Notes under the pieces: generated by a model
What the model was told of the DNA's origin: nothing
The model's input: the letters and a program-made list of their open reading frames with translations, nothing else
Database searches by the model: none
Assembly (NCBI GenBank): GCA_049968235.1
Contig: JBMFRC010000006.1
Location: 107,866-171,865, forward strand
Length of the DNA: 64,000 nucleotides
Reading direction: 5' to 3'
DNA from: Candidatus Hydrogenedens sp.
GTDB taxonomy: Bacteria; Hydrogenedentota; Hydrogenedentia; Hydrogenedentales; Hydrogenedentaceae
Shown: positions 4,862 to 41,818 of the stretch, one piece after another
Layout of the letters: the number at the start of each line of letters is the position of its first letter
How positions within the stretch are numbered: position 1 is the first letter of the stretch
Position numbers and translations under genes: made by a program

Positions 4862-6373
4862 ATGATTGATACATTATTATTGAAAACATATATCACTATT
4901 CTTTCAGTCTTATCTAAGAATAAAGATAATCTATCCGAAAATTTCATTTCGCTTAACGATTTTTTACATCTTTTTTCTCAACCCAAACTCAACCTCATAA
5001 ATACGAAAGACTTCTTACAACAGGTAGAAGAGTGTTTTAATCTTCACATAGAAACTGGAAATAAGCTACATTCTGTTCATTTGAATATTGATAAAATGAT
5101 TGTATTAAATTGTCTGTCTATCTTTAATAAACTTATCGGTAAAAATATTTTTTCTATTTATTATGAGGAAACACAAGAAGGTGGTTTTCTCATTCCGAAT
5201 CTCACTTTGTTTTCATCGAATAATCTGGAGCAATTGTCAAATTTTATCTTGGTTAATAATTTTTTACCTTTAAATACTTCATTCATTAATACACAGTGGA
5301 CTAAAATCACAAATGGTGGAAAAATACAAATCAAACAAAATCAAATTATATTCAAGCTTGCTGGTTTTAAATTACCAGCCAGGAACAATCCTTTATGTGA
5401 ATTTGCCCCTGAATTTTCTTCTGCATTAGAAGAAGAAATCGAAAGTCTCATCTCTAATTATATATCCTCATGGGATTTTAATAAGATAATTGATATTCAT
5501 GTATTTTTCAATTCTATATGGGAATATTTAAGACCGTTTATAACTAATCCTAATAAAATAGAGATTAGAATAGATAAACCTATCCCTATACTAAAGATAT
5601 CGGAACTCAGTTTATCTTCAATACTTCTTTGTAATATTTCTCCATTTATCATTTTGCATAACCTTCTAACAGGGATATTCAGTATTAGTTATGAGACAAA
5701 AGGGAAAAACTTTATGGTCGAAACAGTAATAAGAACGGAGAAACCTTTTGAATATCCTTTAATTGCCCAAAGGGCAATTAAATATTTCGTGGAACAAATA
5801 AAAGGAAGTCTAACCATTGAAAGTAAACAAATAAAAAATGATTGTATATTTACAACTACACTTTCTATTCCCGACAATATCGGCATTTTTTTAGATACCG
5901 AATTACATGGTTGGGAGTGTCTAACAGCAGAAAGTCAGGATATTTTACGACGATTGAGTTATGAATGTTCAATACCTTATGAACATCCATTTATTTCAGA
6001 ACTTATTCGATTTGAAATAGAAAATTATTTTCGTGAACTTTTCTCAAAGCCTCTATTTATCAATCTTTCCCATGAATTATTGGAGAGAAACAAGCGTTAT
6101 ATCAGTCATACTATAAAATCTATGTTAGAGGAAATAGAAAAAGGAAAAATCAAAAAGAATTCTTTTAATCCTTTATCCATAGGACAAATAATGGATGCCT
6201 TTTTAAGTTTACCTGACGTAGAAAATAGATTTCGTAAAATTTTTAATACAGATACAGTCAATATGACACATTTATTAGAATTATCGAAAACATTAAAAGA
6301 ATTCCCCCACTCCAGCAAATCATTGATTTCTATATTAATTTTCTTTATACAAAATACAAAGAAGTCCAATTAA
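4862..6373 (+). CDS. hypothetical protein (503 aa, Asn/Ile-rich, no recognisable motif)
   Basis: Long uninterrupted ORF with no motifs I can recognise. Confidence 0.5.
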   Translation: MIDTLLLKTYITILSVLSKNKDNLSENFISLNDFLHLFSQPKLNLINTKDFLQQVEECFNLHIETGNKLHSVHLNIDKMIVLNCLSIFNKLIGKNIFSIYYEETQEGGFLIPNLTLFSSNNLEQLSNFILVNNFLPLNTSFINTQWTKITNGGKIQIKQNQIIFKLAGFKLPARNNPLCEFAPEFSSALEEEIESLISNYISSWDFNKIIDIHVFFNSIWEYLRPFITNPNKIEIRIDKPIPILKISELSLSSILLCNISPFIILHNLLTGIFSISYETKGKNFMVETVIRTEKPFEYPLIAQRAIKYFVEQIKGSLTIESKQIKNDCIFTTTLSIPDNIGIFLDTELHGWECLTAESQDILRRLSYECSIPYEHPFISELIRFEIENYFRELFSKPLFINLSHELLERNKRYISHTIKSMLEEIEKGKIKKNSFNPLSIGQIMDAFLSLPDVENRFRKIFNTDTVNMTHLLELSKTLKEFPHSSKSLISILIFFIQNTKKSN

Positions 6374-6379
6374 TAGCTT

Positions 6380-6919
6380 CTAAACTTTTAATGTTTTGAT
6401 AATGTTATTTATTTCATTCTCTATTAACTTATATATCTCTATATCATTCATATTCGAGAATCTTTCTCTACATTCTCCCGTGTGAATTGATAAAAGTGTG
6501 TGTGTATTGTGGATAATATAAATTTGCATATTAATATTGGGATTCGTAATAAACATTCCGGCAATGGAATTCCCTAAATCTCCTACTGGCATCCTGTCAA
6601 TATTTGATAACACAAAAGTCAACGCAACCCTGGCACCTCCTAAATCTTCACTTTTACCAATTACAACATCGCCACCGGCTCTTTCTGCTGAACCTTTAGC
6701 CAAACTTAATCCCATTCCCACTATTTTTGATTTTTTTGTTGTATAAAATGGGTCAAACAACTGTTCTTCATCAACGCTAAAACCTTTTCCATTATCTTCA
6801 ATTATCAGGGTAAGCAAATCAGTTTCCTCATTTATATCCAACAAAATTCGTATCTCATTTGCACCTGCATTAATTGAATTTTCTATCAAATCAAGGATAT
6901 GTAAAGAGAGTTCAATCAA
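6380..6919 (-). CDS. stand-alone histidine-kinase-like ATPase (HATPase_c) protein
   Basis: IIEDNGKGF...DPFYTTK...GMGLSLAKGSAERAGGDV matches the N/G1/G2 boxes of GHKL ATPases. There is no HisKA or H-box. It overlaps the upstream PHP gene by 8 nt. Confidence 0.65.
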   Translation of the reverse strand: MIELSLHILDLIENSINAGANEIRILLDINEETDLLTLIIEDNGKGFSVDEEQLFDPFYTTKKSKIVGMGLSLAKGSAERAGGDVVIGKSEDLGGARVALTFVLSNIDRMPVGDLGNSIAGMFITNPNINMQIYIIHNTHTLLSIHTGECRERFSNMNDIEIYKLIENEINNIIKTLKV

Positions 6920-7682
6920 TTTCTATGACCTCCAAAACAGTATTTGTCCTTATTCCTTTTTTTATACCGTCAAAAGTGAGACTATCCACGCATATTTCTG
7001 TTCGAACATGCCCAATTTCATCTATAGAATGTGCATCTGAAGAAGTAATTACCGGAAGATTTTGAGGTAGTGAATATATGATACTTTTTAAAAGAAACTC
7101 TTTCTTTTCGATAACCCTTTTTACTGATATAGGTGATATTTCTAACACATCAAACACATTGTCAGGAATAATACCCAGCTGGCTTGTAATAGAAAAAGAA
7201 GGGCGGTCAACATGACTGGCAATAATCATTGCGTTATATTTTCTTAATAATGCAATTACATTTTCTAAATTCATACCCGATGATAAATACAGCGATTTTT
7301 CTTCTTCTCCTATAACTTCTCCTTTTGAATTAATAATTAGCTGAGGTTCTAAAAAGTCTTTCTTGTTTAACTCTTCACTTAAAGTTTCTCTTATAATTTT
7401 TCCAACCGACTCTGCATCTTCTAAATCGGGAAATATCCCTAAAACATGTACTTCTTCTTCAGTTGTAATCTCTATTCCTGGAAGAAATAATATCTGTGGG
7501 AACCAATTCTGTCCATATTCATAAAATGCCCGCACATTCCTCGTGCTATTGTGATCACATATAGCAAATGCATTTATCCCTTTTTTTATTAAGCGTGGAT
7601 ATATATTCTGGGGTAGCATCATTCGGTCTGCACATGGGGATAAAACAGAATGAATATGTAAGTCAGAAAATAATATGGACAA
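6912..7682 (-). CDS. PHP-domain phosphoesterase
   Basis: N-terminal FSDLHIHSVLSPCAD...AFAICDHNS, matching the PHP (polymerase/histidinol-phosphatase) metal-binding motifs HxH and DHN. Confidence 0.7.
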   Translation of the reverse strand: MSILFSDLHIHSVLSPCADRMMLPQNIYPRLIKKGINAFAICDHNSTRNVRAFYEYGQNWFPQILFLPGIEITTEEEVHVLGIFPDLEDAESVGKIIRETLSEELNKKDFLEPQLIINSKGEVIGEEEKSLYLSSGMNLENVIALLRKYNAMIIASHVDRPSFSITSQLGIIPDNVFDVLEISPISVKRVIEKKEFLLKSIIYSLPQNLPVITSSDAHSIDEIGHVRTEICVDSLTFDGIKKGIRTNTVLEVIEID

Positions 7683-7686
7683 AACA

Positions 7687-8037
7687 CTACCCTCTTATAC
7701 CCAACTCATACAATTTTCCAACAATATTAAATGCAGTATCGGAAGATGAAAATAATAATATTTTTTCTTGTTCTGCTTTCTTCATGACATTATCATCGGG
7801 ATGGCGGTTTTGTATAAAAATGACTGCAGAAATTTCTGCATGGACACATACCGCTATTACATTGATATGTGTCTGTAAAGTAATTAGAATAGAGCCTTTT
7901 TTCGCATTTGCTAAAACATCACTCAGTAAATCCGATACATACCCTTCACTAACTTCTCTATCTAATAAGTCAGCAATTTCAGGAGTAAGTAATTCCAATT
8001 GTAATTCCTCATAAATTTCTTTTAATTTCTTACTCAT
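7687..8037 (-). CDS. DRTGG-domain-like small protein (paralog of 9631..9975)
   Basis: 116 aa. VSDLLSDVL...ILITLQTHINVIAVCVHAE...ILLFSSSDTAFNIVGKL aligns with the DRTGG protein at 9631..9975 (SDLIHSASENTLIITHLNHISL...AFLLVSSLEMYETCGVI). Confidence 0.55.
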   Translation of the reverse strand: MSKKLKEIYEELQLELLTPEIADLLDREVSEGYVSDLLSDVLANAKKGSILITLQTHINVIAVCVHAEISAVIFIQNRHPDDNVMKKAEQEKILLFSSSDTAFNIVGKLYELGIRG

Positions 8038-8053
8038 ACATTTATCTCCATTT

Positions 8054-9634
8054 TTACATTCTATTCAAATATGGGCAGTTGTTTATATCTTTCTTCATTA
8101 TTACAATGTCTTCTGCAAAATTCAAGCATGCGGGTGCTCCACAAACTCCACAATCATAGCCGGGTAATTTTTTATTTATTTTTTCTATCTCACTAAGTTT
8201 CTGAATCGCTATTCTTACATCCTCATCAAGTCGCACACCTTTCCGTGAATTGATAGTGGATACACGGTATATTGCATCTATTTTTTGATTTTCATATTTA
8301 TGCTTCTGTTCATTCCAGAATGAATCAAAAATTATTTTTGACATGGTGGGTTCTTCACCCCAATATGGAGAGCCAAAACAGCCATTATAGCAAGCATACA
8401 ATTCCACCATTTTTATAGGGACAGGTAATTGTTTCTTTTCTATATTTTCTAAAAACGTTTTTACCTGCTCTATTCCAGATATTGTTACTATGCCATCATT
8501 GCTATTTTTGTCAATATTTATATTGTGTATTTTATCTTTTTGTTTTTTCTTATTTGTTTCTTTATATATATCCATTATCATTTCAAATGATTTCTGGGGA
8601 GAAATCATTTGAATAGAAATATCTAAATTTTTATTGTTATTAACTGCGGATATCTGAGCAGGACAAGAAGGTATAAAAAAGATATTTCGTCTTTCAGCGA
8701 AACTACTTATCGCTGTTTCTATAGGTCCCAAATAGGGAGCAATATTATCAATCAATGAAGGATATTCCGTTTGTATCCAGTATAGGACTGCGGGACAAAC
8801 GGGTAATATTAAAGGGAAATTAATTTTTTCATTGTTCTCAATATATTTTTGTGTTTCTTTTTGTAATACTTCCTCCCATAATACTAATGGAAATACTTCC
8901 AATCCTTTTCTGTGGAATTTTTCTTCGAACTCATCCCATGAATAATAAAGTAGAATAGAAGCAATCCATGGTGAGGGGGCGATAAGTATTCCCTGCTTTT
9001 CCTTTTCATGATTTTTCTCGCAATCCTCCAAATCAAATACTTTCGTAGGACATATCTTTATACATTCATTACAATTGATGCAATGGTGAGACAAAATATA
9101 CAAGTTTTTTTCATACAGTCTTATGGCTTTTGTGGGACATCTTGATAGACATTGCAAACATTTTTTACATTTCTCTGCCGTTACATGAACATAACTATCA
9201 ACTTTTGAAAAATCTTTGTCTGACTTTACAAATATAAGTATTTTTAACAAAGTGCCTGTGGGCTCGCTATGTATAACAAAGTAGTCTGAATTTTTCCTTA
9301 TGTTAGGTAAACCCATTCCTGCTCCGAAACCCATTTCTCTTGCTTCGTCGGGTGCAGTAGAGTACCCTTCCTGAACAGCAAGGTCAATTCGGGGAATACC
9401 GGGTCCTGTATCCTTAACTACAATCTCAATTTTTTCATCATCTATTGTAAAATTAATTTCTCCTCCATAAGAATGGATAATAACATTCATCTCCGACTCA
9501 TAAACGGCAATCATAATCTTTCGGATTATTTCGGGGGCTATTGCCAACTTACTTAATATTTCTTTAATTTTTGAAGAAACCTGTCCGCCACCTAAATAAT
9601 CTCCTTTTTTTACTGGATATGAACCTGTAATCAT
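8054..9634 (-). CDS. sensory [FeFe]-hydrogenase-like protein fused to an N-terminal RsbW/SpoIIAB-type serine-kinase ATPase; two 4Fe-4S ferredoxin motifs; C-terminal Cx2Cx4Cx16C
   Basis: Residues 40-125 are HATPase_c_2-like (VYESEMNVIIHSYGGEI...VKDTGPGIP...MGFGAGMGLPNIRK). C156xxC159xxC162xxxC166P and C185xxC188xxC191xxxC195P are ferredoxin motifs. H-cluster-like candidate motifs are LPVC280PAV, IPSC324PAQ and E411LYAC415YNGC419FGSP (compare ExMACxxGCxxG). The C-terminus is C495GVC498GAPAC503-x16-C520. Confidence 0.7.
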   Translation of the reverse strand: MITGSYPVKKGDYLGGGQVSSKIKEILSKLAIAPEIIRKIMIAVYESEMNVIIHSYGGEINFTIDDEKIEIVVKDTGPGIPRIDLAVQEGYSTAPDEAREMGFGAGMGLPNIRKNSDYFVIHSEPTGTLLKILIFVKSDKDFSKVDSYVHVTAEKCKKCLQCLSRCPTKAIRLYEKNLYILSHHCINCNECIKICPTKVFDLEDCEKNHEKEKQGILIAPSPWIASILLYYSWDEFEEKFHRKGLEVFPLVLWEEVLQKETQKYIENNEKINFPLILPVCPAVLYWIQTEYPSLIDNIAPYLGPIETAISSFAERRNIFFIPSCPAQISAVNNNKNLDISIQMISPQKSFEMIMDIYKETNKKKQKDKIHNINIDKNSNDGIVTISGIEQVKTFLENIEKKQLPVPIKMVELYACYNGCFGSPYWGEEPTMSKIIFDSFWNEQKHKYENQKIDAIYRVSTINSRKGVRLDEDVRIAIQKLSEIEKINKKLPGYDCGVCGAPACLNFAEDIVIMKKDINNCPYLNRM

Positions 9635-9975
9635 TGTTGTATTTTTCCCTTTTCAAATATTCCATAAATGACACCACAGGTTTCATACATCTCTAAGGAA
9701 GATACTAAAAGAAAGGCTTTATTTTCTTCCGCACTTTCTATCAACTCATGGATAGGTTCTGAGTCTGTAATAAGACATATAGCAGGAACATCAAATATAT
9801 TAAACAACTGAACTAGAGAGATATGATTTAAGTGTGTAATTATCAATGTGTTTTCGCTGGCTGAATGAATTAAATCACTAATTCGGTCCCCTGCAAAAAC
9901 TTTCCCTATTTCTGTTTTTTCCCCTTTAACAACAACCTCTATACCTAATACCTTTATAATATCCTGTATATCCAC
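9631..9975 (-). CDS. DRTGG-domain protein
   Basis: 114 aa. VFAGDRISDLI...LIITHL...AICLITD...AFLLVSSLEMYETCGVI fits the DRTGG (PF07085-type) pattern GDR...vtpldtfetarrl. ATGA start/stop overlap with the downstream hydrogenase-like gene. Confidence 0.6.
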   Translation of the reverse strand: MDIQDIIKVLGIEVVVKGEKTEIGKVFAGDRISDLIHSASENTLIITHLNHISLVQLFNIFDVPAICLITDSEPIHELIESAEENKAFLLVSSLEMYETCGVIYGIFEKGKIQQ

Positions 9976-14178: not shown

Positions 14179-14586
14179 ATGCCATTAATTCAATGGAACG
14201 ATTCTTTAAGTGTCGGCATTCCTTCTATGGATACACAACATCAAAAATTAATCAATATTATAAATCGACTACATGATGCTATGCGTGAAGGAAAAGGGAA
14301 AGATATTATATCCCCCGTATTAACGGAGTTACATAATTATACCGTTACTCACTTTACAGCAGAAGAAAAATTAATGGAACAATGTAAATACAGTGGTCTT
14401 GCCGTTCAGAAACAACAACATAATAATTTTGTCAATCAAATTAAAAAGTATCAGTCTGACTATGAAAAAGGTTCATTAACTCTTCCTCTTTCGGTTTCCA
14501 ATTACTTAAAAGACTGGCTTATTAATCATATTCAGGGTCTGGATAAAAAATATGAGACATCTATGAAATCAGCAGGAATTAAATAG
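14179..14586 (+). CDS. bacteriohemerythrin (hemerythrin HHE cation-binding domain)
   Basis: 135 aa. W-x-D...H...H...E...H...H...D ligand spacing (QWNDSLSVGIPSMDTQHQ...HFTAEEKLM...HNNF...WLINHIQGLDKKY). Confidence 0.75.
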   Translation: MPLIQWNDSLSVGIPSMDTQHQKLINIINRLHDAMREGKGKDIISPVLTELHNYTVTHFTAEEKLMEQCKYSGLAVQKQQHNNFVNQIKKYQSDYEKGSLTLPLSVSNYLKDWLINHIQGLDKKYETSMKSAGIK

Positions 14587-14597
14587 GAGAAATATCT

Positions 14598-15005
14598 ATG
14601 GCTTTTCTCAATTGGAACGATAATTTTAATATTGGAATATTTCAAATTGATGCTCAACATAAAAATCTGGTTAATATTATTAATCAGTTATATGAAGCGA
14701 TGAGTGTAGGGAAAGGAAAAGAAATTATTGGGAAAATTGTAAAAGAATTGGCGGGTTATACAATTACTCATTTTGGCACTGAAGAGAAACTCATGCAGGA
14801 ACATGGCTATCCTGAATTGCCTCAACATAAAAAAGAACATGAACTTTTTGTTAAAAAAGTTCAGGAATTTAATAATGAAATTCAAAAAGGGAATCTTATC
14901 ATTGTTTCTAATGTTGCCAATTTCTTGAAGGAATGGTTGATAAAACATATTCAAGGAACCGATAAGAAATATGGTCCATTTTTAAAGGGAAAAGGGGTAA
15001 AATAG
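14598..15005 (+). CDS. bacteriohemerythrin (tandem paralog)
   Basis: 135 aa, about 50% identical to the preceding ORF, with the same ligand pattern. Confidence 0.75.
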   Translation: MAFLNWNDNFNIGIFQIDAQHKNLVNIINQLYEAMSVGKGKEIIGKIVKELAGYTITHFGTEEKLMQEHGYPELPQHKKEHELFVKKVQEFNNEIQKGNLIIVSNVANFLKEWLIKHIQGTDKKYGPFLKGKGVK

Positions 15006-36473: not shown

Positions 36474-37949
36474 ATGCAAATAAGTATAAATAAGTCCCTT
36501 TATAAATTTATTCTCTTTCTGTCTATAATTTTTTCGATGTTTATTATAACTTTCCACAGTTATACAGATGAACCTGCTTTACCTAAAGGATTATCTTCAA
36601 GTGAAAATACAACTTCTCCACAGTTAAAAGACAATAATGAACCTGATCTACCTCAAGGATTACAATCCCAACCGACAAATGAACCTCAACTTCCACAGGG
36701 ACTGGGGGAAATCGCCATAAAAGAAGAAAAAAAAGAAGAGAATAAACAAAAAAAACCGACGCCTCTTAATATAGACATAAAGGGATTTTTGGATAATCGT
36801 GCCGGTATTCGTTATAGAGAAGACAAGCAACAGTCAAAAGATTTAATCCTTGGGGAATCTCGTTTACAATTAAGAGCGGATAAATTCTGGGATAAGGTGG
36901 GTATTGAAACCACAGGGGACTTTTATGGAGATTTTGTTCAGGAGAAATTAAATTTTGACCTGCGTCAGGCACGGTTAACATGGACATTATCACCTACTTT
37001 AGACTTACGGATAGGTCGTCAAATCCTTACATGGGGAACAGGAGACCAAATCTTTATAAATGACCTCTTTCCCAAGGATTGGAATTCATTTTTTGTAGGT
37101 AGAGAACAGGAATATTTAAAAGCTCCTTCTGATTCTATAAAATTAGGTTGGTATCCTGAATGGTTTAACTTTGAACTTGTTTATACTCCTCGTTTCACAC
37201 CGGATAGATATATCACAGGAAACCCAATTACATTTTGGAATCCTCTTTTTAATAGACTTCAGGGAGAAGAGCAAGAAATCCGACCTGACCATCCCGGTCC
37301 TCGATTTCGTGATGATGAATGGGCTTTCCGTGCGTATAGAAAAATTAATAACTTTGAATTTGCCTTGTATGCTTATTCTGGAAGATGGAAAAGCCCCGGC
37401 GGTCAAAAATTATTACCTCCACTACAATCATACTTCCCAAAACTAAATGTTTATGGGACCAGTTTAAGAGGCCCTGTGTGGAAAGGAATATTATCTTTAG
37501 AAATGGGTTACTATGACTCTAAAGAGGACCGCGATGGGACAAGTCCCTTTATTAATAACTCGGAAATTCGTTTCTTAGTAGGTTATGAACAGGAATTAGC
37601 AAAGGACTTTACAGGTGCTTTCCAGGTTTATTTAGAACATATGTTAGATTACAGAAATTATGAAAGCAATCAACCTTTCTGGATACATAATAAAGATGAA
37701 AATCGTCTATTGACTACAATCCGTCTTACCCGACAATTGATGAATCAAAATCTTATTTTGTCATGGTTCATGTATTATTCCCCAACAGACCAGGATTTCT
37801 TTTTAAGACCTAATGTTCGTTATAAAATAAATGATAAATGGTGGGTTGAAGGTGGAGCCAATATATTTATTGGAAACGAACCTTATACTTTCTTCGGACA
37901 ATTTATGGAAAACTCAAACATCTATATAGGTGCAAGATGTTATTTTTAA
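36474..37949 (+). CDS. hypothetical outer-membrane protein (signal peptide, N-terminal EPxLPxGL repeats, C-terminal Phe)
   Basis: Signal peptide. Three EP(A/D/Q)LP(K/Q)GL repeats. Alternating amphipathic beta-strand character. Terminal ...ARCYF. Confidence 0.5.
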   Translation: MQISINKSLYKFILFLSIIFSMFIITFHSYTDEPALPKGLSSSENTTSPQLKDNNEPDLPQGLQSQPTNEPQLPQGLGEIAIKEEKKEENKQKKPTPLNIDIKGFLDNRAGIRYREDKQQSKDLILGESRLQLRADKFWDKVGIETTGDFYGDFVQEKLNFDLRQARLTWTLSPTLDLRIGRQILTWGTGDQIFINDLFPKDWNSFFVGREQEYLKAPSDSIKLGWYPEWFNFELVYTPRFTPDRYITGNPITFWNPLFNRLQGEEQEIRPDHPGPRFRDDEWAFRAYRKINNFEFALYAYSGRWKSPGGQKLLPPLQSYFPKLNVYGTSLRGPVWKGILSLEMGYYDSKEDRDGTSPFINNSEIRFLVGYEQELAKDFTGAFQVYLEHMLDYRNYESNQPFWIHNKDENRLLTTIRLTRQLMNQNLILSWFMYYSPTDQDFFLRPNVRYKINDKWWVEGGANIFIGNEPYTFFGQFMENSNIYIGARCYF

Positions 37950-37978: not shown

Positions 37979-39718
37979 ATGCAAAAGCAAAAAAAAGTAA
38001 GATTTTATTATATTTTCTTATTGCTAACAATTCCTTTTCTTATAACAAATAATGTCTTTGCTAAAAAGAAATCTGCAGATAAAAAAACGCCTTCTCAACC
38101 GTCTATACCCATCAATCAATATGAGAACCAAAAATACAGTGAATATTCAGGACCTAAAGGCATATTGGATATAGATGTAACCGATGTCGTAGGGAAGTAT
38201 TGGGGAGCAAGAGTTGATTTATTAAATATAGAGGATGGGAAACGATATCGTTTTGATTTTCCGGAGGGGAAAGGAGAACAAAAAGTCCCTATTGGAAGTT
38301 TTAGGGCTTATATTTTTGCATATGATAATGGGGTACCTATAATGGTGCAAATCAAGGATATTACAATAAAAGAAAATCAACCCGTTTTTATTCCAATTAC
38401 ACTTCTGGAAGGGACAACAGGTCCTCTTGTTTTGAGAGATTTCGACAGTGATGCTGACCTTGTGCTGGATAGAGTTGAAATAGAATCAGGGACAGACCCT
38501 TACAATCCTCTGGATGTCCCCGGTAAAAAGACAATACCTGTCGAAAACAAAGTTATACAAAATAAACCGGGATGGTACAAAGGTGAATTATGTTGCTTTT
38601 CTAAATATAGCATCGGTAGTGAAACAGTAGGAGAACTAATCAAAAGGGCAGAAAAAGATGGGCTTGATTTTCTCGCTATAACAGATATAAACACATTGAA
38701 ATCCATTGAAGACCCCGAATATCATTCCGATAAACTTGTTCTCATACCTGCAATGAAATGGGGAAATGAACAGATGGGATATGCTCTGGTGTATTGTCCT
38801 CGAACACCTTTAGATAGTCCGACAACAATTCCTGAGGCACAAGCGGAATGTATTCGTGTCCAGGCACAGGGTGGAATTTTTGCTATCGCTCATCCTTGTT
38901 TTCCGACAGGCTTCTGGCGTTGGGGTTTAAATTATGTAAATGCTATTCAAGTGTGGTGTAGAGAGTGGAGAGCCATTCCACCTCTTACTATAGATAAATT
39001 AGATGACTGGCTCAAGGAAAAGAAAAATGGAAAATTTATATATTCACTTACAGCCGCAGTAAATGAATCGAAGATTGCATCTGTTTCTGCCAATTCTCAA
39101 TCAACACGCTTCTGGGATTATGAAGTAGCACGAGGTGCTATGGTATGTGGCATTGCAGGAAGTCATTCTTCAAACCCTTCAGTTCCCTTAGGAAAGCCCA
39201 TAACCTATATACGAGCAGAGAATAAATCATTAGGGGCTATCCTTGAAGGACTTCGTTTGGGAAGAACTTATGTATCTTCTGGGATTAATGGCCCAAAATT
39301 AAGTTTTATGGCAGATTCATTAGCGGATAATAAAATTGATGTAAGCATTGGAGGTATTGTCCCTCTGGGAATAGATATTCGTTTTGAAGCAATTGCTGAA
39401 AATGCAAAAGGAAAAAAATTAGAAGTGTTATTTAACGGAAGACCTATCGTTACAAAAATCATTGAAAGTGATAACTTTGCAATCCGTTTTACGGACAAAC
39501 CTATACGTAGTGGTGCCTACCGACTTCGCATTATTGGTGCTCCGGAGAATACAAAAGGCTTTGGTGATATAGAAGTCTATGCAATGACCAGCCCTATATA
39601 TGCACAGGATATTACTCCCGAATTACTCTGGCGTTTGCCCAAATTTGACCCCAAAAAAGCATGGATAGAAATTAAGCCCAGTGAAGAAGGTTCATACCTC
39701 AATCTCCCTGAAAACTAA
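37979..39718 (+). CDS. secreted protein with a degenerate PHP-like domain
   Basis: Signal peptide. GELCCFSKYSIGSETVGELIKRAEKDGLDFLAITDINT resembles the PHP motif hvHTxxSDG...AITDH, but the His ligands are replaced. Confidence 0.45.
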   Translation: MQKQKKVRFYYIFLLLTIPFLITNNVFAKKKSADKKTPSQPSIPINQYENQKYSEYSGPKGILDIDVTDVVGKYWGARVDLLNIEDGKRYRFDFPEGKGEQKVPIGSFRAYIFAYDNGVPIMVQIKDITIKENQPVFIPITLLEGTTGPLVLRDFDSDADLVLDRVEIESGTDPYNPLDVPGKKTIPVENKVIQNKPGWYKGELCCFSKYSIGSETVGELIKRAEKDGLDFLAITDINTLKSIEDPEYHSDKLVLIPAMKWGNEQMGYALVYCPRTPLDSPTTIPEAQAECIRVQAQGGIFAIAHPCFPTGFWRWGLNYVNAIQVWCREWRAIPPLTIDKLDDWLKEKKNGKFIYSLTAAVNESKIASVSANSQSTRFWDYEVARGAMVCGIAGSHSSNPSVPLGKPITYIRAENKSLGAILEGLRLGRTYVSSGINGPKLSFMADSLADNKIDVSIGGIVPLGIDIRFEAIAENAKGKKLEVLFNGRPIVTKIIESDNFAIRFTDKPIRSGAYRLRIIGAPENTKGFGDIEVYAMTSPIYAQDITPELLWRLPKFDPKKAWIEIKPSEEGSYLNLPEN

Positions 39719-40663: not shown

Positions 40664-41818
40664 ATGGAACCCTACTCTTTTGCAAATATTCTCAATAAAT
40701 GGAATTCAGAACTTATTAACGAGGTATATGAAAAAACCAATGAAGACAAAGTATTGTATGCGTTAGGGAAAGAATCTTTATCTATTGAAGATTTAATTGC
40801 CCTTCTTTCACCAAAAGCATTACCTTTCCTCGAAAAAATGGCTCAAAAAGCAAACCGATTAACACGCTGGCATTTTGGAAGAACTATATCCATATACGCA
40901 CCTATATATCTTTCAAATCTTTGTGCTTCGGATTGTGTATATTGCTATTTTGCATCGCACTCCGGTATTCGTGAAAAACGAGTTACACTTACCGAAGAAG
41001 AAATACGAGGGGAATGCATTGAACTGAACAAAAAAGGTATTCAAACCATATTACTTTTGACAGGTGATGCCCCTAAAATAGTTACTGTGGACTATATATC
41101 TCAGGCAGTCCGTATCGCAAAAGAGTACTTTAAATCGGTTAGTATCGAGGTATATTCTATGGATGAAGAGCATTATACTCAATTAGCAAATGACGGGACA
41201 GAAGGGGTCACCTTATATATGGAAACTTATGATAAAGAAACTTATGATAAAGTGCACTTATCTGGAAAGAAAAAAGACTATCTATATCGACTCGATGCTC
41301 TGGAAAGAGCGGGTAGAGCCGGTATCCGCAGGCTTACTTGCGGAGTCCTGCTTGGATTAAGTGACTGGCGTCTCGATGTTGTTTGGCTTGCTTTACATGC
41401 AAAATATTTAGAAAAAATGTGCTGGAAAAGTGTGATTTCACTTTCTTTCCCAAGACTAAAACATACACCTTCTCGATTTAAAGTACCTCATTTAGTCAGC
41501 CTTCAAGAATTGGTTCAAATTATTACCGCAATGCGACTTTTTATGCCTTATTCTCCTTTTAACCTAAGTACTCGAGAAAGTGCAGAAGTACGAAATCATC
41601 TAATTCCGTTAGGGATTACTTCTATGAGTGCTGGCTCGTCAACACGACCCGGAGGATATAAAATTTACCAGAATGTTACTGATACACAACGTCCCGTATT
41701 AGAACAATTCGAAATTGATGACCACCGAACTGTGGAAGGAGTTATATCTGCCATTAAAAATAAAGGATACGACCCTGTCTGGGTTGACTTTGAACCCGGT
41801 TTTATAAAATCATTATAG
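40664..41818 (+). CDS. thiH: 2-iminoacetate synthase (radical SAM tyrosine lyase)
   Basis: CASDCVYC radical-SAM CX3CX2C. About 380 aa. Immediately downstream of thiG. Confidence 0.75.
   Translation: MEPYSFANILNKWNSELINEVYEKTNEDKVLYALGKESLSIEDLIALLSPKALPFLEKMAQKANRLTRWHFGRTISIYAPIYLSNLCASDCVYCYFASHSGIREKRVTLTEEEIRGECIELNKKGIQTILLLTGDAPKIVTVDYISQAVRIAKEYFKSVSIEVYSMDEEHYTQLANDGTEGVTLYMETYDKETYDKVHLSGKKKDYLYRLDALERAGRAGIRRLTCGVLLGLSDWRLDVVWLALHAKYLEKMCWKSVISLSFPRLKHTPSRFKVPHLVSLQELVQIITAMRLFMPYSPFNLSTRESAEVRNHLIPLGITSMSAGSSTRPGGYKIYQNVTDTQRPVLEQFEIDDHRTVEGVISAIKNKGYDPVWVDFEPGFIKSL

Follow-up and report, generated by a model that had tools for sequence, protein, structure and literature searches.

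A stretch of DNA from Candidatus Hydrogenedens sp. (64,000 nucleotides; NCBI GenBank assembly GCA_049968235.1, contig JBMFRC010000006.1, positions 107,866 to 171,865 of the forward strand), referred to here as the window, encodes on its minus strand a protein with a domain resembling that of [FeFe]-hydrogenases, and the question raised by this locus is whether that protein senses hydrogen. An earlier note on this DNA, made from the letters and a list of open reading frames (ORFs), had described the product as a sensor with divergent active-site motifs and had taken the divergence as the mark of a slow site suited to sensing rather than catalysis. The domain matches and the conservation of cysteines in this protein, the target of our analysis, are far beyond chance. 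The target belongs to a clade of proteins in which a kinase-type ATPase is fused to the hydrogenase-like part, and alignments indicate that this fused clade keeps the cysteines of the cubane, of two F-domain clusters, and of a C-terminal cluster but not the residues by which a [2Fe] subsite would be held or lined. On balance, we consider it probable that the target is a hydrogenase-derived, di-iron-free redox sensor with four clusters, fused to its own partner-switching-type kinase.

Architecture and descent of the target

The ORF and its parts, in the order in which they occur in the protein, are as follows.

8054 to 9634, minus strand: target ORF, 526 amino acids, ATG start, with GHKL ATPase, 2x[4Fe-4S] ferredoxin domain, H-like domain, and C-terminal FeS domain
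9230 to 9634, minus strand: SpoIIAB/RsbW-type serine-kinase/anti-sigma ATPase domain (residues 1 to 135)
9020 to 9193, minus strand: F-domain with two CxxCxxCxxxC(P) motifs, two [4Fe-4S] clusters (residues 148 to 205)
8225 to 9007, minus strand: [FeFe]-hydrogenase H-like domain (residues 210 to 470)
8069 to 8167, minus strand: PF04060 FeS domain, C495-x2-C498-x4-C503-x16-C520, fourth [4Fe-4S] site of the type found in RnfB, the corrinoid iron-sulfur protein (CFeSP), and HydS (residues 490 to 522)

This four-part architecture is real, and the observation of the earlier note is confirmed. Pfam places HATPase_c/HATPase_c_2 at residues 19 to 132, two 4Fe-4S ferredoxin motifs at residues 151 to 207, Fe_hyd_lg_C with 43.7 bits (cut-off, 22.1), and the PF04060 "FeS" domain at residues 490 to 522 (E value, 1.4e-10), and the cysteines of the H-like motifs and the tail are conserved in 43 homologues with 32 to 81% identity. 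A script located cysteines at positions 156, 159, 162, 166, 185, 188, 191, 195, 205, 280, 324, 415, 419, 495, 498, 503, and 520 and recovered the strings ILPVC280PAV, FIPSC324PAQ, ELYAC415YNGC419FG, and C495GVC498GAPAC503-x16-C520; every position and motif quoted previously lies exactly where it had been placed. An AlphaFold2 model built on the homologue alignment was confident (predicted local distance difference test [pLDDT], 87.9; predicted template modeling score, 0.88), with pLDDT below 50 only at residues 365 to 378; the H-like domain has the fold of the [FeFe]-hydrogenase H-domain, and the top 50 Foldseek matches to the model were [FeFe]-hydrogenases only.

The N-terminal domain shows the GHKL fold and the N, G1, and G2 boxes of SpoIIAB/RsbW-type proteins, and the boxes are invariant in the family (N-box, E46-x-E48-x-N50-x3-H54; G1, D75-x-G-x-G79; G2, G102-x-G-x-G-x-G108); the NCBIfam model for anti-sigma F (SpoIIAB) matched below its threshold. 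The eight cysteines of the F-domain are 85 to 100% conserved across the fused family. At the other end of the protein, the four cysteines of the tail are invariant in the 43 homologues and form the Cx2Cx4Cx16C motif reported for TmHydS and TamHydS (PMC8163306), so that the HydS-type tail recognized earlier is borne out; the same region also matches the CFeSP structure 4djd_C. PF04060 is the FeS domain of RnfB and of the N terminus of CFeSP; in the target it is a C-terminal appendage, as in HydS.

The target ends 6 residues past C520 and has no C-terminal PAS or HisKA domain. The domain order (two [4Fe-4S] motifs, H-domain, and Cx2Cx4Cx16C tail, with no PAS) is thus that of the group D (M2e) sensory hydrogenases, with an extra ATPase at the N terminus. 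The suggestion that this ATPase stands in place of a PAS domain has to be dropped, because the PAS domain of TmHydS sits at the C terminus. Nor is the fusion unusual, as had been supposed, because the same architecture occurs in at least 545 clusters of a large protein database (E value, ≤1e-5), with relatives in at least 584 species genomes in a scan of one genome per species, and unfused systems carry the same ATPase as an adjacent gene. Among those listed, the groups with relatives are Planctomycetota, Spirochaetota, Actinomycetota, Verrucomicrobiota, Bacillota, Bacteroidota, Synergistota, Chlorobiaceae, Atribacterota, and Acidobacteriota. A HMMER search with residues 200 to 526 over 1.84 billion representatives returned 798 matches at an E value of ≤1e-3. 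The target is one of hundreds of such genes that bear only a generic annotation; an identical sequence has been deposited from a Candidatus Hydrogenedentes metagenome-assembled genome (MAG) as [quoted passage not shown].

Kinship with putative sensory [FeFe]-hydrogenases, also claimed previously, was supported by profile scores: residues 148 to 526 of the target scored 224 bits (E value, 1e-70) against the unfused, or split, M2e/group D profile, 53 bits against fusions of HydS with a histidine kinase (HydS-HK), and 19 bits against HydA. A neighbor-joining tree (78 sequences, 375 columns, 200 bootstraps, Poisson correction), which is crude and was built without HydDB or curated reference sequences, separated a fused clade (96.5% bootstrap support) from a split clade (93.5%) and set both together apart from HydS-HK and HydA (85.5%). 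The tree agrees with the profile scores, and by both the fused clade is a distinct sister of group D; because the fused proteins form a clade of their own and lack active-site features of group D, we did not file the target as a member of that group. The target appears to descend from and work like group D sensory hydrogenases; its active-site features and its clade differ. Membership of group C (M2f), represented by TmHydS and HydS-HK (for example, L002:19029-21074), was rejected, as the target has no C-terminal PAS or HisKA domain. The two share the F-domain, the H-domain, the C-terminal four-cysteine cluster, an x-P-C-P-A version of motif L1, and an attached signaling domain, but in group C the PAS or HisKA-HATPase output is C-terminal and both Lys358 and the Gly-Gly loop discussed below are kept, whereas the target has an N-terminal SpoIIAB-type output and reaches only 53 bits.

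The di-iron pocket of the H-like domain

The motif sites of the target that were compared with those of hydrogenases are the following, with equivalents in the hydrogenase CpI.

8795 to 8797, minus strand: C280, equivalent to CpI C300, cubane ligand in motif L1; Val at the position of the relay Cys299
8654 to 8665, minus strand: C324-P-A-Q327, motif L2; C324 equivalent to CpI C355, Q327 at the Lys358 position, Pro354 replaced by Ser
8480 to 8572, minus strand: Lys/Asn-rich low-complexity linker in place of the Phe417/Gly-Gly loop (residues 355 to 385; pLDDT below 50 at residues 365 to 378)
8372 to 8404, minus strand: E411-L-Y413-A-C415-Y-N-G-C419-F-G421, motif L3; C415 and C419 equivalent to CpI C499 and C503, Y413 at the Met497 position

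The motifs were aligned in 64 fused proteins, 63 split (unfused, group-D-type) proteins, 8 HydS-HK proteins, and 35 HydA proteins. The ligands of the cubane, [4Fe-4S]H, are intact: the columns of CpI C300, C355, C499, and C503 are kept in 96 to 100% of the fused clade, which also retains Pro301, Pro324, and Gly502, and among the 43 homologues C280, C324, and C415 never vary, while C419 reaches a conservation of at least 90%. Motif L1 of the fused clade, S-P-V-C-P-A-V, resembles S-S-A-C-P-A of group D and T-T-P-C-P-A of HydS-HK; the proton-relay Cys299 of TSCCP is gone in the target (L-P-V-C-P), as the earlier note had it, and this is a trait shared with sensor groups C and D.

The residues of the pocket that would hold the [2Fe] subsite are not kept in this way. 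Lysine is absent from the Lys358 column in all 64 fused proteins (Gln in 55, Glu in 6, His in 2, and Arg in 1) and present in 62 of the 63 unfused and all 8 HydS-HK proteins, with 97 to 100% conservation across HydA, split proteins, and HydS-HK. Motif L2 reads P-S-C-P-A-Q in the target and T/S-P-C-P-A-K in its unfused neighbors, group D having exchanged Met353 for Ser or Thr and kept Pro354 and Lys358; Pro354 is lost from the fused clade and conserved in HydA, split group D, and HydS-HK. The columns of the Phe417/Gly-Gly loop, which reads I-F-G-x-T-G-G in HydA, G-W-A-x-S-G-G-E in group D, and F-P-I-x-G-G in HydS-HK, are 85 to 92% gaps in the fused clade, where a variable low-complexity linker takes its place, and the median spacing from C355 to C499 is 88 residues, against 102 to 144 in HydA, split group D, and HydS-HK. 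At the Met497 position, an aromatic residue is found in 59 of the 64 fused proteins (Tyr413 in the target); this residue is Met in HydA, Asn, Arg, Gln, or Leu in split group D, and Leu in HydS-HK. When the 25 columns common to HydA, group D, and HydS-HK are considered together, the fused clade keeps all of the cysteines and loses seven columns, among them P354, A357, K358, one loop Gly, and the Gly after L3. Across about 110 fused proteins, neither Lys358 nor the Phe417/Gly-Gly loop is retained, the one exception being an independent fusion (P0214) described below.

The distal cyanide ligand of the di-iron site is contacted by K358, P324, and Q325, and the residues of the [2Fe] cavity include P354, F417, and V423 (PMC10147833); compared with these residues, what the fused clade has lost belongs to the di-iron pocket. 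The residues now found in their place are in turn conserved (Gln in 85% and an aromatic residue in 92% of the fused clade), as are the cluster ligands and the ATP-binding motifs, which argues for a remodeled functional site rather than decay. The earlier note was therefore right in part about the H-cluster motifs: L1 and L2 are reduced to single-cysteine versions and L3 is recognizable, as quoted, but the deletion of the Phe417/Gly-Gly loop had been missed. Its view of the missing lysine as something to be expected of a slow sensor does not hold, because lysine and loop are both present in most of the bona fide sensory hydrogenases in our comparison. The groups cannot be told apart cleanly by the lysine alone; it is the loop deletion that sets the fused clade apart in these alignments. 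A catalytic hydrogenase was rejected, the relay Cys, the Lys, and the Phe417/Gly-Gly loop all being gone, and the NCBIfam models for group A and monomeric hydrogenases scored far under their cut-offs (TIGR02512, 32.7 bits against 406; TIGR04105, 46 bits against 450).

The closest known system remains group D, of which TamHydS of Thermoanaerobacter mathranii is an example: it shares the two N-terminal [4Fe-4S] motifs, the H-domain, the Cx2Cx4Cx16C tail, and the absence of PAS (PMC8163306), together with an L1 without relay Cys, the best profile score, sister-clade status, the same gene module, and, in the wider family, the same site upstream of HydABC. The target differs in that the ATPase gene is fused on, Gln stands in for Lys358 and Tyr for Met497, and both Pro354 and the Phe417/Gly-Gly loop are gone. 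Unlike TamHydS, which has a working H-cluster, the target probably binds none. A Nar1- or NARF-like domain that binds Fe-S clusters only, which the earlier note had set against its own reading, is closer to what the sequence indicates, although the target is not a Nar1 orthologue. In Nar1, the H-domain keeps a cubane site without [2Fe]H, and the protein is a cluster-trafficking factor (PMC12621388). Nar1, NARF, and CIAO3 share with the target the hydrogenase fold and the four [4Fe-4S]H cysteines and have no [2Fe]H, a loss that is only presumptive for the target. The analogy is functional only: Nar1 is a carrier of the cytosolic iron-sulfur assembly pathway, whereas the target is bacterial, has two F-domain clusters and a C-terminal cluster, is fused to a kinase-type domain, and is encoded in a regulatory operon. 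Nar1 and NARF are eukaryotic and have one cluster site at the N terminus and a Trp targeting signal at the C terminus, compared with eight F-domain cysteines and an ending of ...LNRM in the target. The target is sister to bacterial group D, and Nar1 orthology was rejected.

The gene module and a proposed signaling circuit

In the window, the target lies second in a compact run of five genes on the minus strand; the other four are listed here.

9631 to 9975, minus strand: upstream DRTGG-domain protein, 114 amino acids, overlapping the start of the target by 4 nucleotides; invariant Ser33
7687 to 8037, minus strand: downstream DRTGG-domain protein, 116 amino acids; invariant Asp36, Ser39, and Thr53
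6912 to 7682, minus strand: PHP-family phosphoesterase, 256 amino acids
6380 to 6919, minus strand: stand-alone HATPase_c protein, 179 amino acids, last of the five-gene module

The DRTGG assignment comes from PF07085, matched by 26 of 29 upstream and 25 of 29 downstream orthologues, and from PDB 2IOJ, matched against the orthologue profiles with E values of 8e-6 (upstream set) and 1.2e-3 (downstream set); the motif D-[LM]-[LM]-S-[DW]-V, present in both proteins, contains their invariant Ser. When single sequences were compared with the PDB, neither the small proteins nor the PHP protein nor a 503-amino-acid neighbor (see below) gave useful matches.

Gene context was sampled at 80 fetched loci and six others. 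The module recurs in the order DRTGG, ATPase/HydS, DRTGG, PHP, ATPase and takes two forms. The fused form, with a protein of about 520 to 680 amino acids, occurs in Planctomycetota, Spirochaetota, Actinomycetota, Verrucomicrobiota, and Hydrogenedentes; in the split form, found in Bacillota (including Thermoanaerobacteraceae), Bacteroidota, Synergistota, Chlorobiaceae, and Atribacterota, an ATPase gene of about 140 codons is followed after a median gap of 18 nucleotides by a gene for a Fer4, H-domain, and FeS protein of about 425 to 460 amino acids. Where the flanking sequence is long enough, the module in most loci lies upstream of and adjoins hydC-hydD-hydB-hydA, the genes of a bifurcating A3-type hydrogenase. 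An example of the split protein from Thermoanaerobacteraceae contains S-S-A-C-P (relay Cys replaced by Ala), S-P-C-A-A-K (Met353 replaced by Ser), and E-G-L-A-C (Met497 replaced by Leu), with a tail from residue 381, and by its motifs the split protein of about 440 amino acids is of the M2e/group D "HydS" type. Residues 1 to 145 of the target match all 61 of the 61 stand-alone ATPase genes that lie directly upstream of unfused HydS (E values, 1e-34 to 1e-47), which, together with the shared module, indicates that the target is the fused version of an ATPase and group D HydS gene pair. The search of representatives yielded two further fusions. One (P0214; 607 amino acids) joins the ATPase to a HydS with intact C-P-A-K, G-W-G-R-S-G-G-E, and S-type sequence and is evidently an independent fusion, to judge from these motifs; the other (P0193; 534 amino acids) joins a DRTGG domain to an intact HydS. 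The two support a physical complex of DRTGG protein, ATPase, and HydS.

These associations suggest how the target may work. The H-like domain would bind [4Fe-4S] alone, without [2Fe], for which eukaryotic Nar1 offers a precedent, giving four cubanes in total; with no [2Fe] at the H-site, the protein would report electron pressure (from the ferredoxin or NAD(H) pool or from HydABC electrons) rather than bind H2. The redox state of the clusters might then alter how the ATPase domain, which is tightly packed, is folded, and that domain would act as a serine kinase or as a binding partner. SpoIIAB, RsbW, and SiaB are partner-switching kinases with the same type of domain, and in the target kinase activity is putative; we found no STAS-domain antagonist, PP2C phosphatase, or sigma factor in the five-gene module, the neighbors being DRTGG, PHP, and HATPase proteins. 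Because a kinase-type domain is thus combined with DRTGG proteins bearing invariant serines and with a PHP protein, and not with STAS or PP2C proteins, we propose a redox-gated circuit that resembles partner switching, in which the two DRTGG proteins could act as substrates or as antagonists, with the PHP phosphoesterase as the phosphatase that works against the kinase. Such a circuit would, in the ancestral setting, have HydABC under its control.

Several points weigh against this reading. The loss of [2Fe]H is deduced from sequence alone. In a wider sample (hmmalign of representatives), the unfused proteins that keep the loop have Lys in 30 of 43 cases, Arg in 6, Gln, Glu, or His in 5, and another residue in 2; because some loop-keeping relatives thus do without Lys358, Gln at this position by itself would be no proof that the di-iron site is gone, and it could still form a hydrogen bond with the cyanide ligand. 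The substrates of the kinase are guesses, and the module has neither a STAS-domain partner nor a sigma factor. The C-terminal cluster of TamHydS has been argued not to be reduced by H2 (PMC13104023). Genes such as hydA or hydEFG may lie elsewhere in the genome, outside the 64-kb window. In support of the reading, the gene immediately after hydA encodes a HydS-HK that retains Lys and loop at 7 of 12 fused-type loci and at none of 25 split-type loci (Fisher p, 8e-5), a pattern consistent with another protein doing the H2 sensing in fused-type loci, but the cases are not phylogenetically independent and most are from Actinomycetota.

The principal alternative is the one favored by the earlier note, a true H2 sensor in which a complete but atypical H-cluster forms with Gln327 in place of Lys358 and H2 gates the fused kinase. 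All four cluster-ligating cysteines are conserved, bridging C419 included, the nearest relatives bind an H-cluster experimentally (TamHydS; PMC8163306), some unfused relatives that keep the loop have Gln or Arg for Lys, and the family is mostly encoded beside hydABC in genomes that must carry maturases. Against it stand the absence of both Lys and the Phe417/Gly-Gly loop from about 110 fused proteins, P0214 excepted, the shortened C355-to-C499 spacing, the bulky aromatic residue at the Met497 position, and the separate, intact HydS-HK that fused-type loci often encode. Substitutions of Lys358 in CpI and HydA1 are also reported to abolish [2Fe] incorporation (Knorzer et al. 2012). We regard an H2 sensor as unlikely.

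Two further explanations start, as does a di-iron-free redox sensor, from an H-like domain with a cubane only, and each seems to us distinctly improbable. The target could be a carrier in the manner of Nar1, or an assembly or repair factor for HydABC, with the ATPase driving cluster transfer and the PHP and DRTGG proteins assisting; the cubane-only site of the trafficking factor Nar1 (PMC12621388) and the tight linkage of the module to hydCDBA in many phyla speak for such a role. Alternatively, a labile, exposed cubane in the emptied H-pocket, comparable to those of FNR or NsrR, could sense O2, NO, or oxidative stress and turn off oxygen-sensitive metabolism. Loss of the loop that closes the pocket should expose [4Fe-4S]H, Fe-S gas sensors are common (PMC13104023), and both the window and syntenic relatives have hemerythrin genes close by; against this, the pocket may be filled and shielded by the aromatic residue that replaces Met497, and the hemerythrin neighborhood is probably incidental.

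We return to the redox sensor with its fused kinase, and to a broader proposal that we advance tentatively, as plausible but somewhat short of probable: that the fused clade is a bacterial "pseudo-hydrogenase", derived from group D and free of di-iron, an Fe-S redox (or gas) sensor wired to a SpoIIAB-like kinase; that with two DRTGG proteins and PHP it makes up a new partner-switching circuit; that the fusions (the target, P0214, and P0193) reveal the partners of all group D sensors; and that the circuit has been reused in Hydrogenedentes beyond hydrogenase control. A 2026 study of TamHydS stated that the interaction partners of group D HydS were still unidentified and that finding them was the critical next step (PMC13104023). 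The fusion speaks for the adjacent SpoIIAB-like ATPase, and probably for the DRTGG proteins as well, as signaling partners of group D sensors, and the family thus offers a direct and testable lead on signaling by hydrogenases that have been characterized spectroscopically. The fused clade is also a natural experiment in which the cubane site has been kept and the [2Fe] pocket dismantled, a bacterial parallel to Nar1, and it could show what role the hydrogenase scaffold plays once the handling of H2 is gone. In metagenomic surveys, proteins like the target, which carry the generic hydrogenase annotation quoted above, should not be counted as hydrogenases or as evidence of H2 metabolism. In the literature that was searched, no paper dealt with the fused clade, with the DRTGG/PHP module, or with a lost pocket, although they may still have been described.

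The hydrogenase loci that adjoin the module had features of their own. The HydS-HK proteins, of 585 to 681 amino acids, combine Fer4, an intact H-domain, Cx2Cx4Cx16C, HisKA, and HATPase_c (L002:19029-21074 and loci L011, L012, L013, L014, L020, and L021); in L002, response regulators follow the HydS-HK gene. In 25 of 35 HydA proteins encoded next to the module (L001:17335-19107, L002:17244-19016, and 23 others in loci L005 to L084), motif L1 is TSCSPGW and not TSCCP(A/G)W, with Ser aligned with the cubane ligand Cys300; TSCSPGW also occurs in the solved, active HydA1 of Acetobacterium woodii (7q4v) and is a known natural variant. HydB in fused-type loci is about 1015 to 1090 amino acids long and consists of a NuoF-like part with a Pyr_redox_2/Fer4_20 (GltD-like) extension (L001:14255-17308, L002:14175-17222, and loci L005, L006, L008, L011 to L014, L017, and L020), compared with about 596 to 620 amino acids where Bacillota and Bacteroidota have split-type loci; a different or additional nucleotide site may be used by the hydrogenase that the fused module serves. 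In two Thermoleophilia MAGs (L021 and L055), hydB, hydA, and the HydS-HK gene appear broken into several ORFs, which may reflect assembly frameshift errors or real pseudogenization.

The orphan locus in Hydrogenedentes

In contrast to many fused and unfused relatives, the target locus and four syntenic relatives from Hydrogenedentes do not adjoin HydABC. No hydrogenase, NuoE/F-like, or maturase genes were found within the 64-kb window, and the contigs of the four relatives (40 to 50% identity) share the same orphan arrangement, with no hydrogenase or maturase genes within 10 kb. One candidate, a radical-SAM/BATS gene at 40664 to 41818 (plus strand) considered as HydG, was rejected: it lies next to thiG and scored 199 bits with the HydG model and 441 bits, above the cut-off, with that of ThiH, and it was assigned to ThiH. 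The shared synteny comprises a Metallophos 5'-nucleotidase-like gene, the five-gene module, a convergent gene for a protein of 498 to 503 amino acids, an M50 peptidase, and a class I tRNA synthetase. That four relatives keep the orphan arrangement suggests that the module has long been maintained away from hydABC in the Hydrogenedentes lineage. A functionless remnant of a hydrogenase regulatory operon, decaying after the loss of hydABC, would fit the missing hydrogenase and maturase genes but is scarcely credible, given an intact target ORF with a confident AlphaFold model, invariant cluster ligands and ATP-binding motifs, and all five genes retained with their order unchanged at syntenic loci whose identity is as low as 40% (although at one of these, L086, the last ORF, that of the ATPase, is broken into two).

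A scan for promoters and terminators gave counts not above those in shuffled sequence. Farther along in the window, two adjacent plus-strand ORFs, at 36474 to 37949 and 37979 to 39718, encode proteins of 491 and 579 amino acids, the first without a family match and the second with only a CehA/McbA metallohydrolase domain. Two tandem plus-strand genes for 135-amino-acid hemerythrin-domain proteins lie at 14179 to 15005, about 4.5 kb from the module, and are present in one or two copies in syntenic relatives. The 503-amino-acid neighbor, encoded at 4862 to 6373 on the plus strand and without a Pfam, NCBIfam, or PDB match, converges with the last gene of the module, the stop codons being 6 nucleotides apart; a protein of 498 to 503 amino acids is encoded at the same position in four syntenic contigs of the Hydrogenedentes clade, in one of which (L085) the 3' end of its gene overlaps the module by 14 nucleotides.

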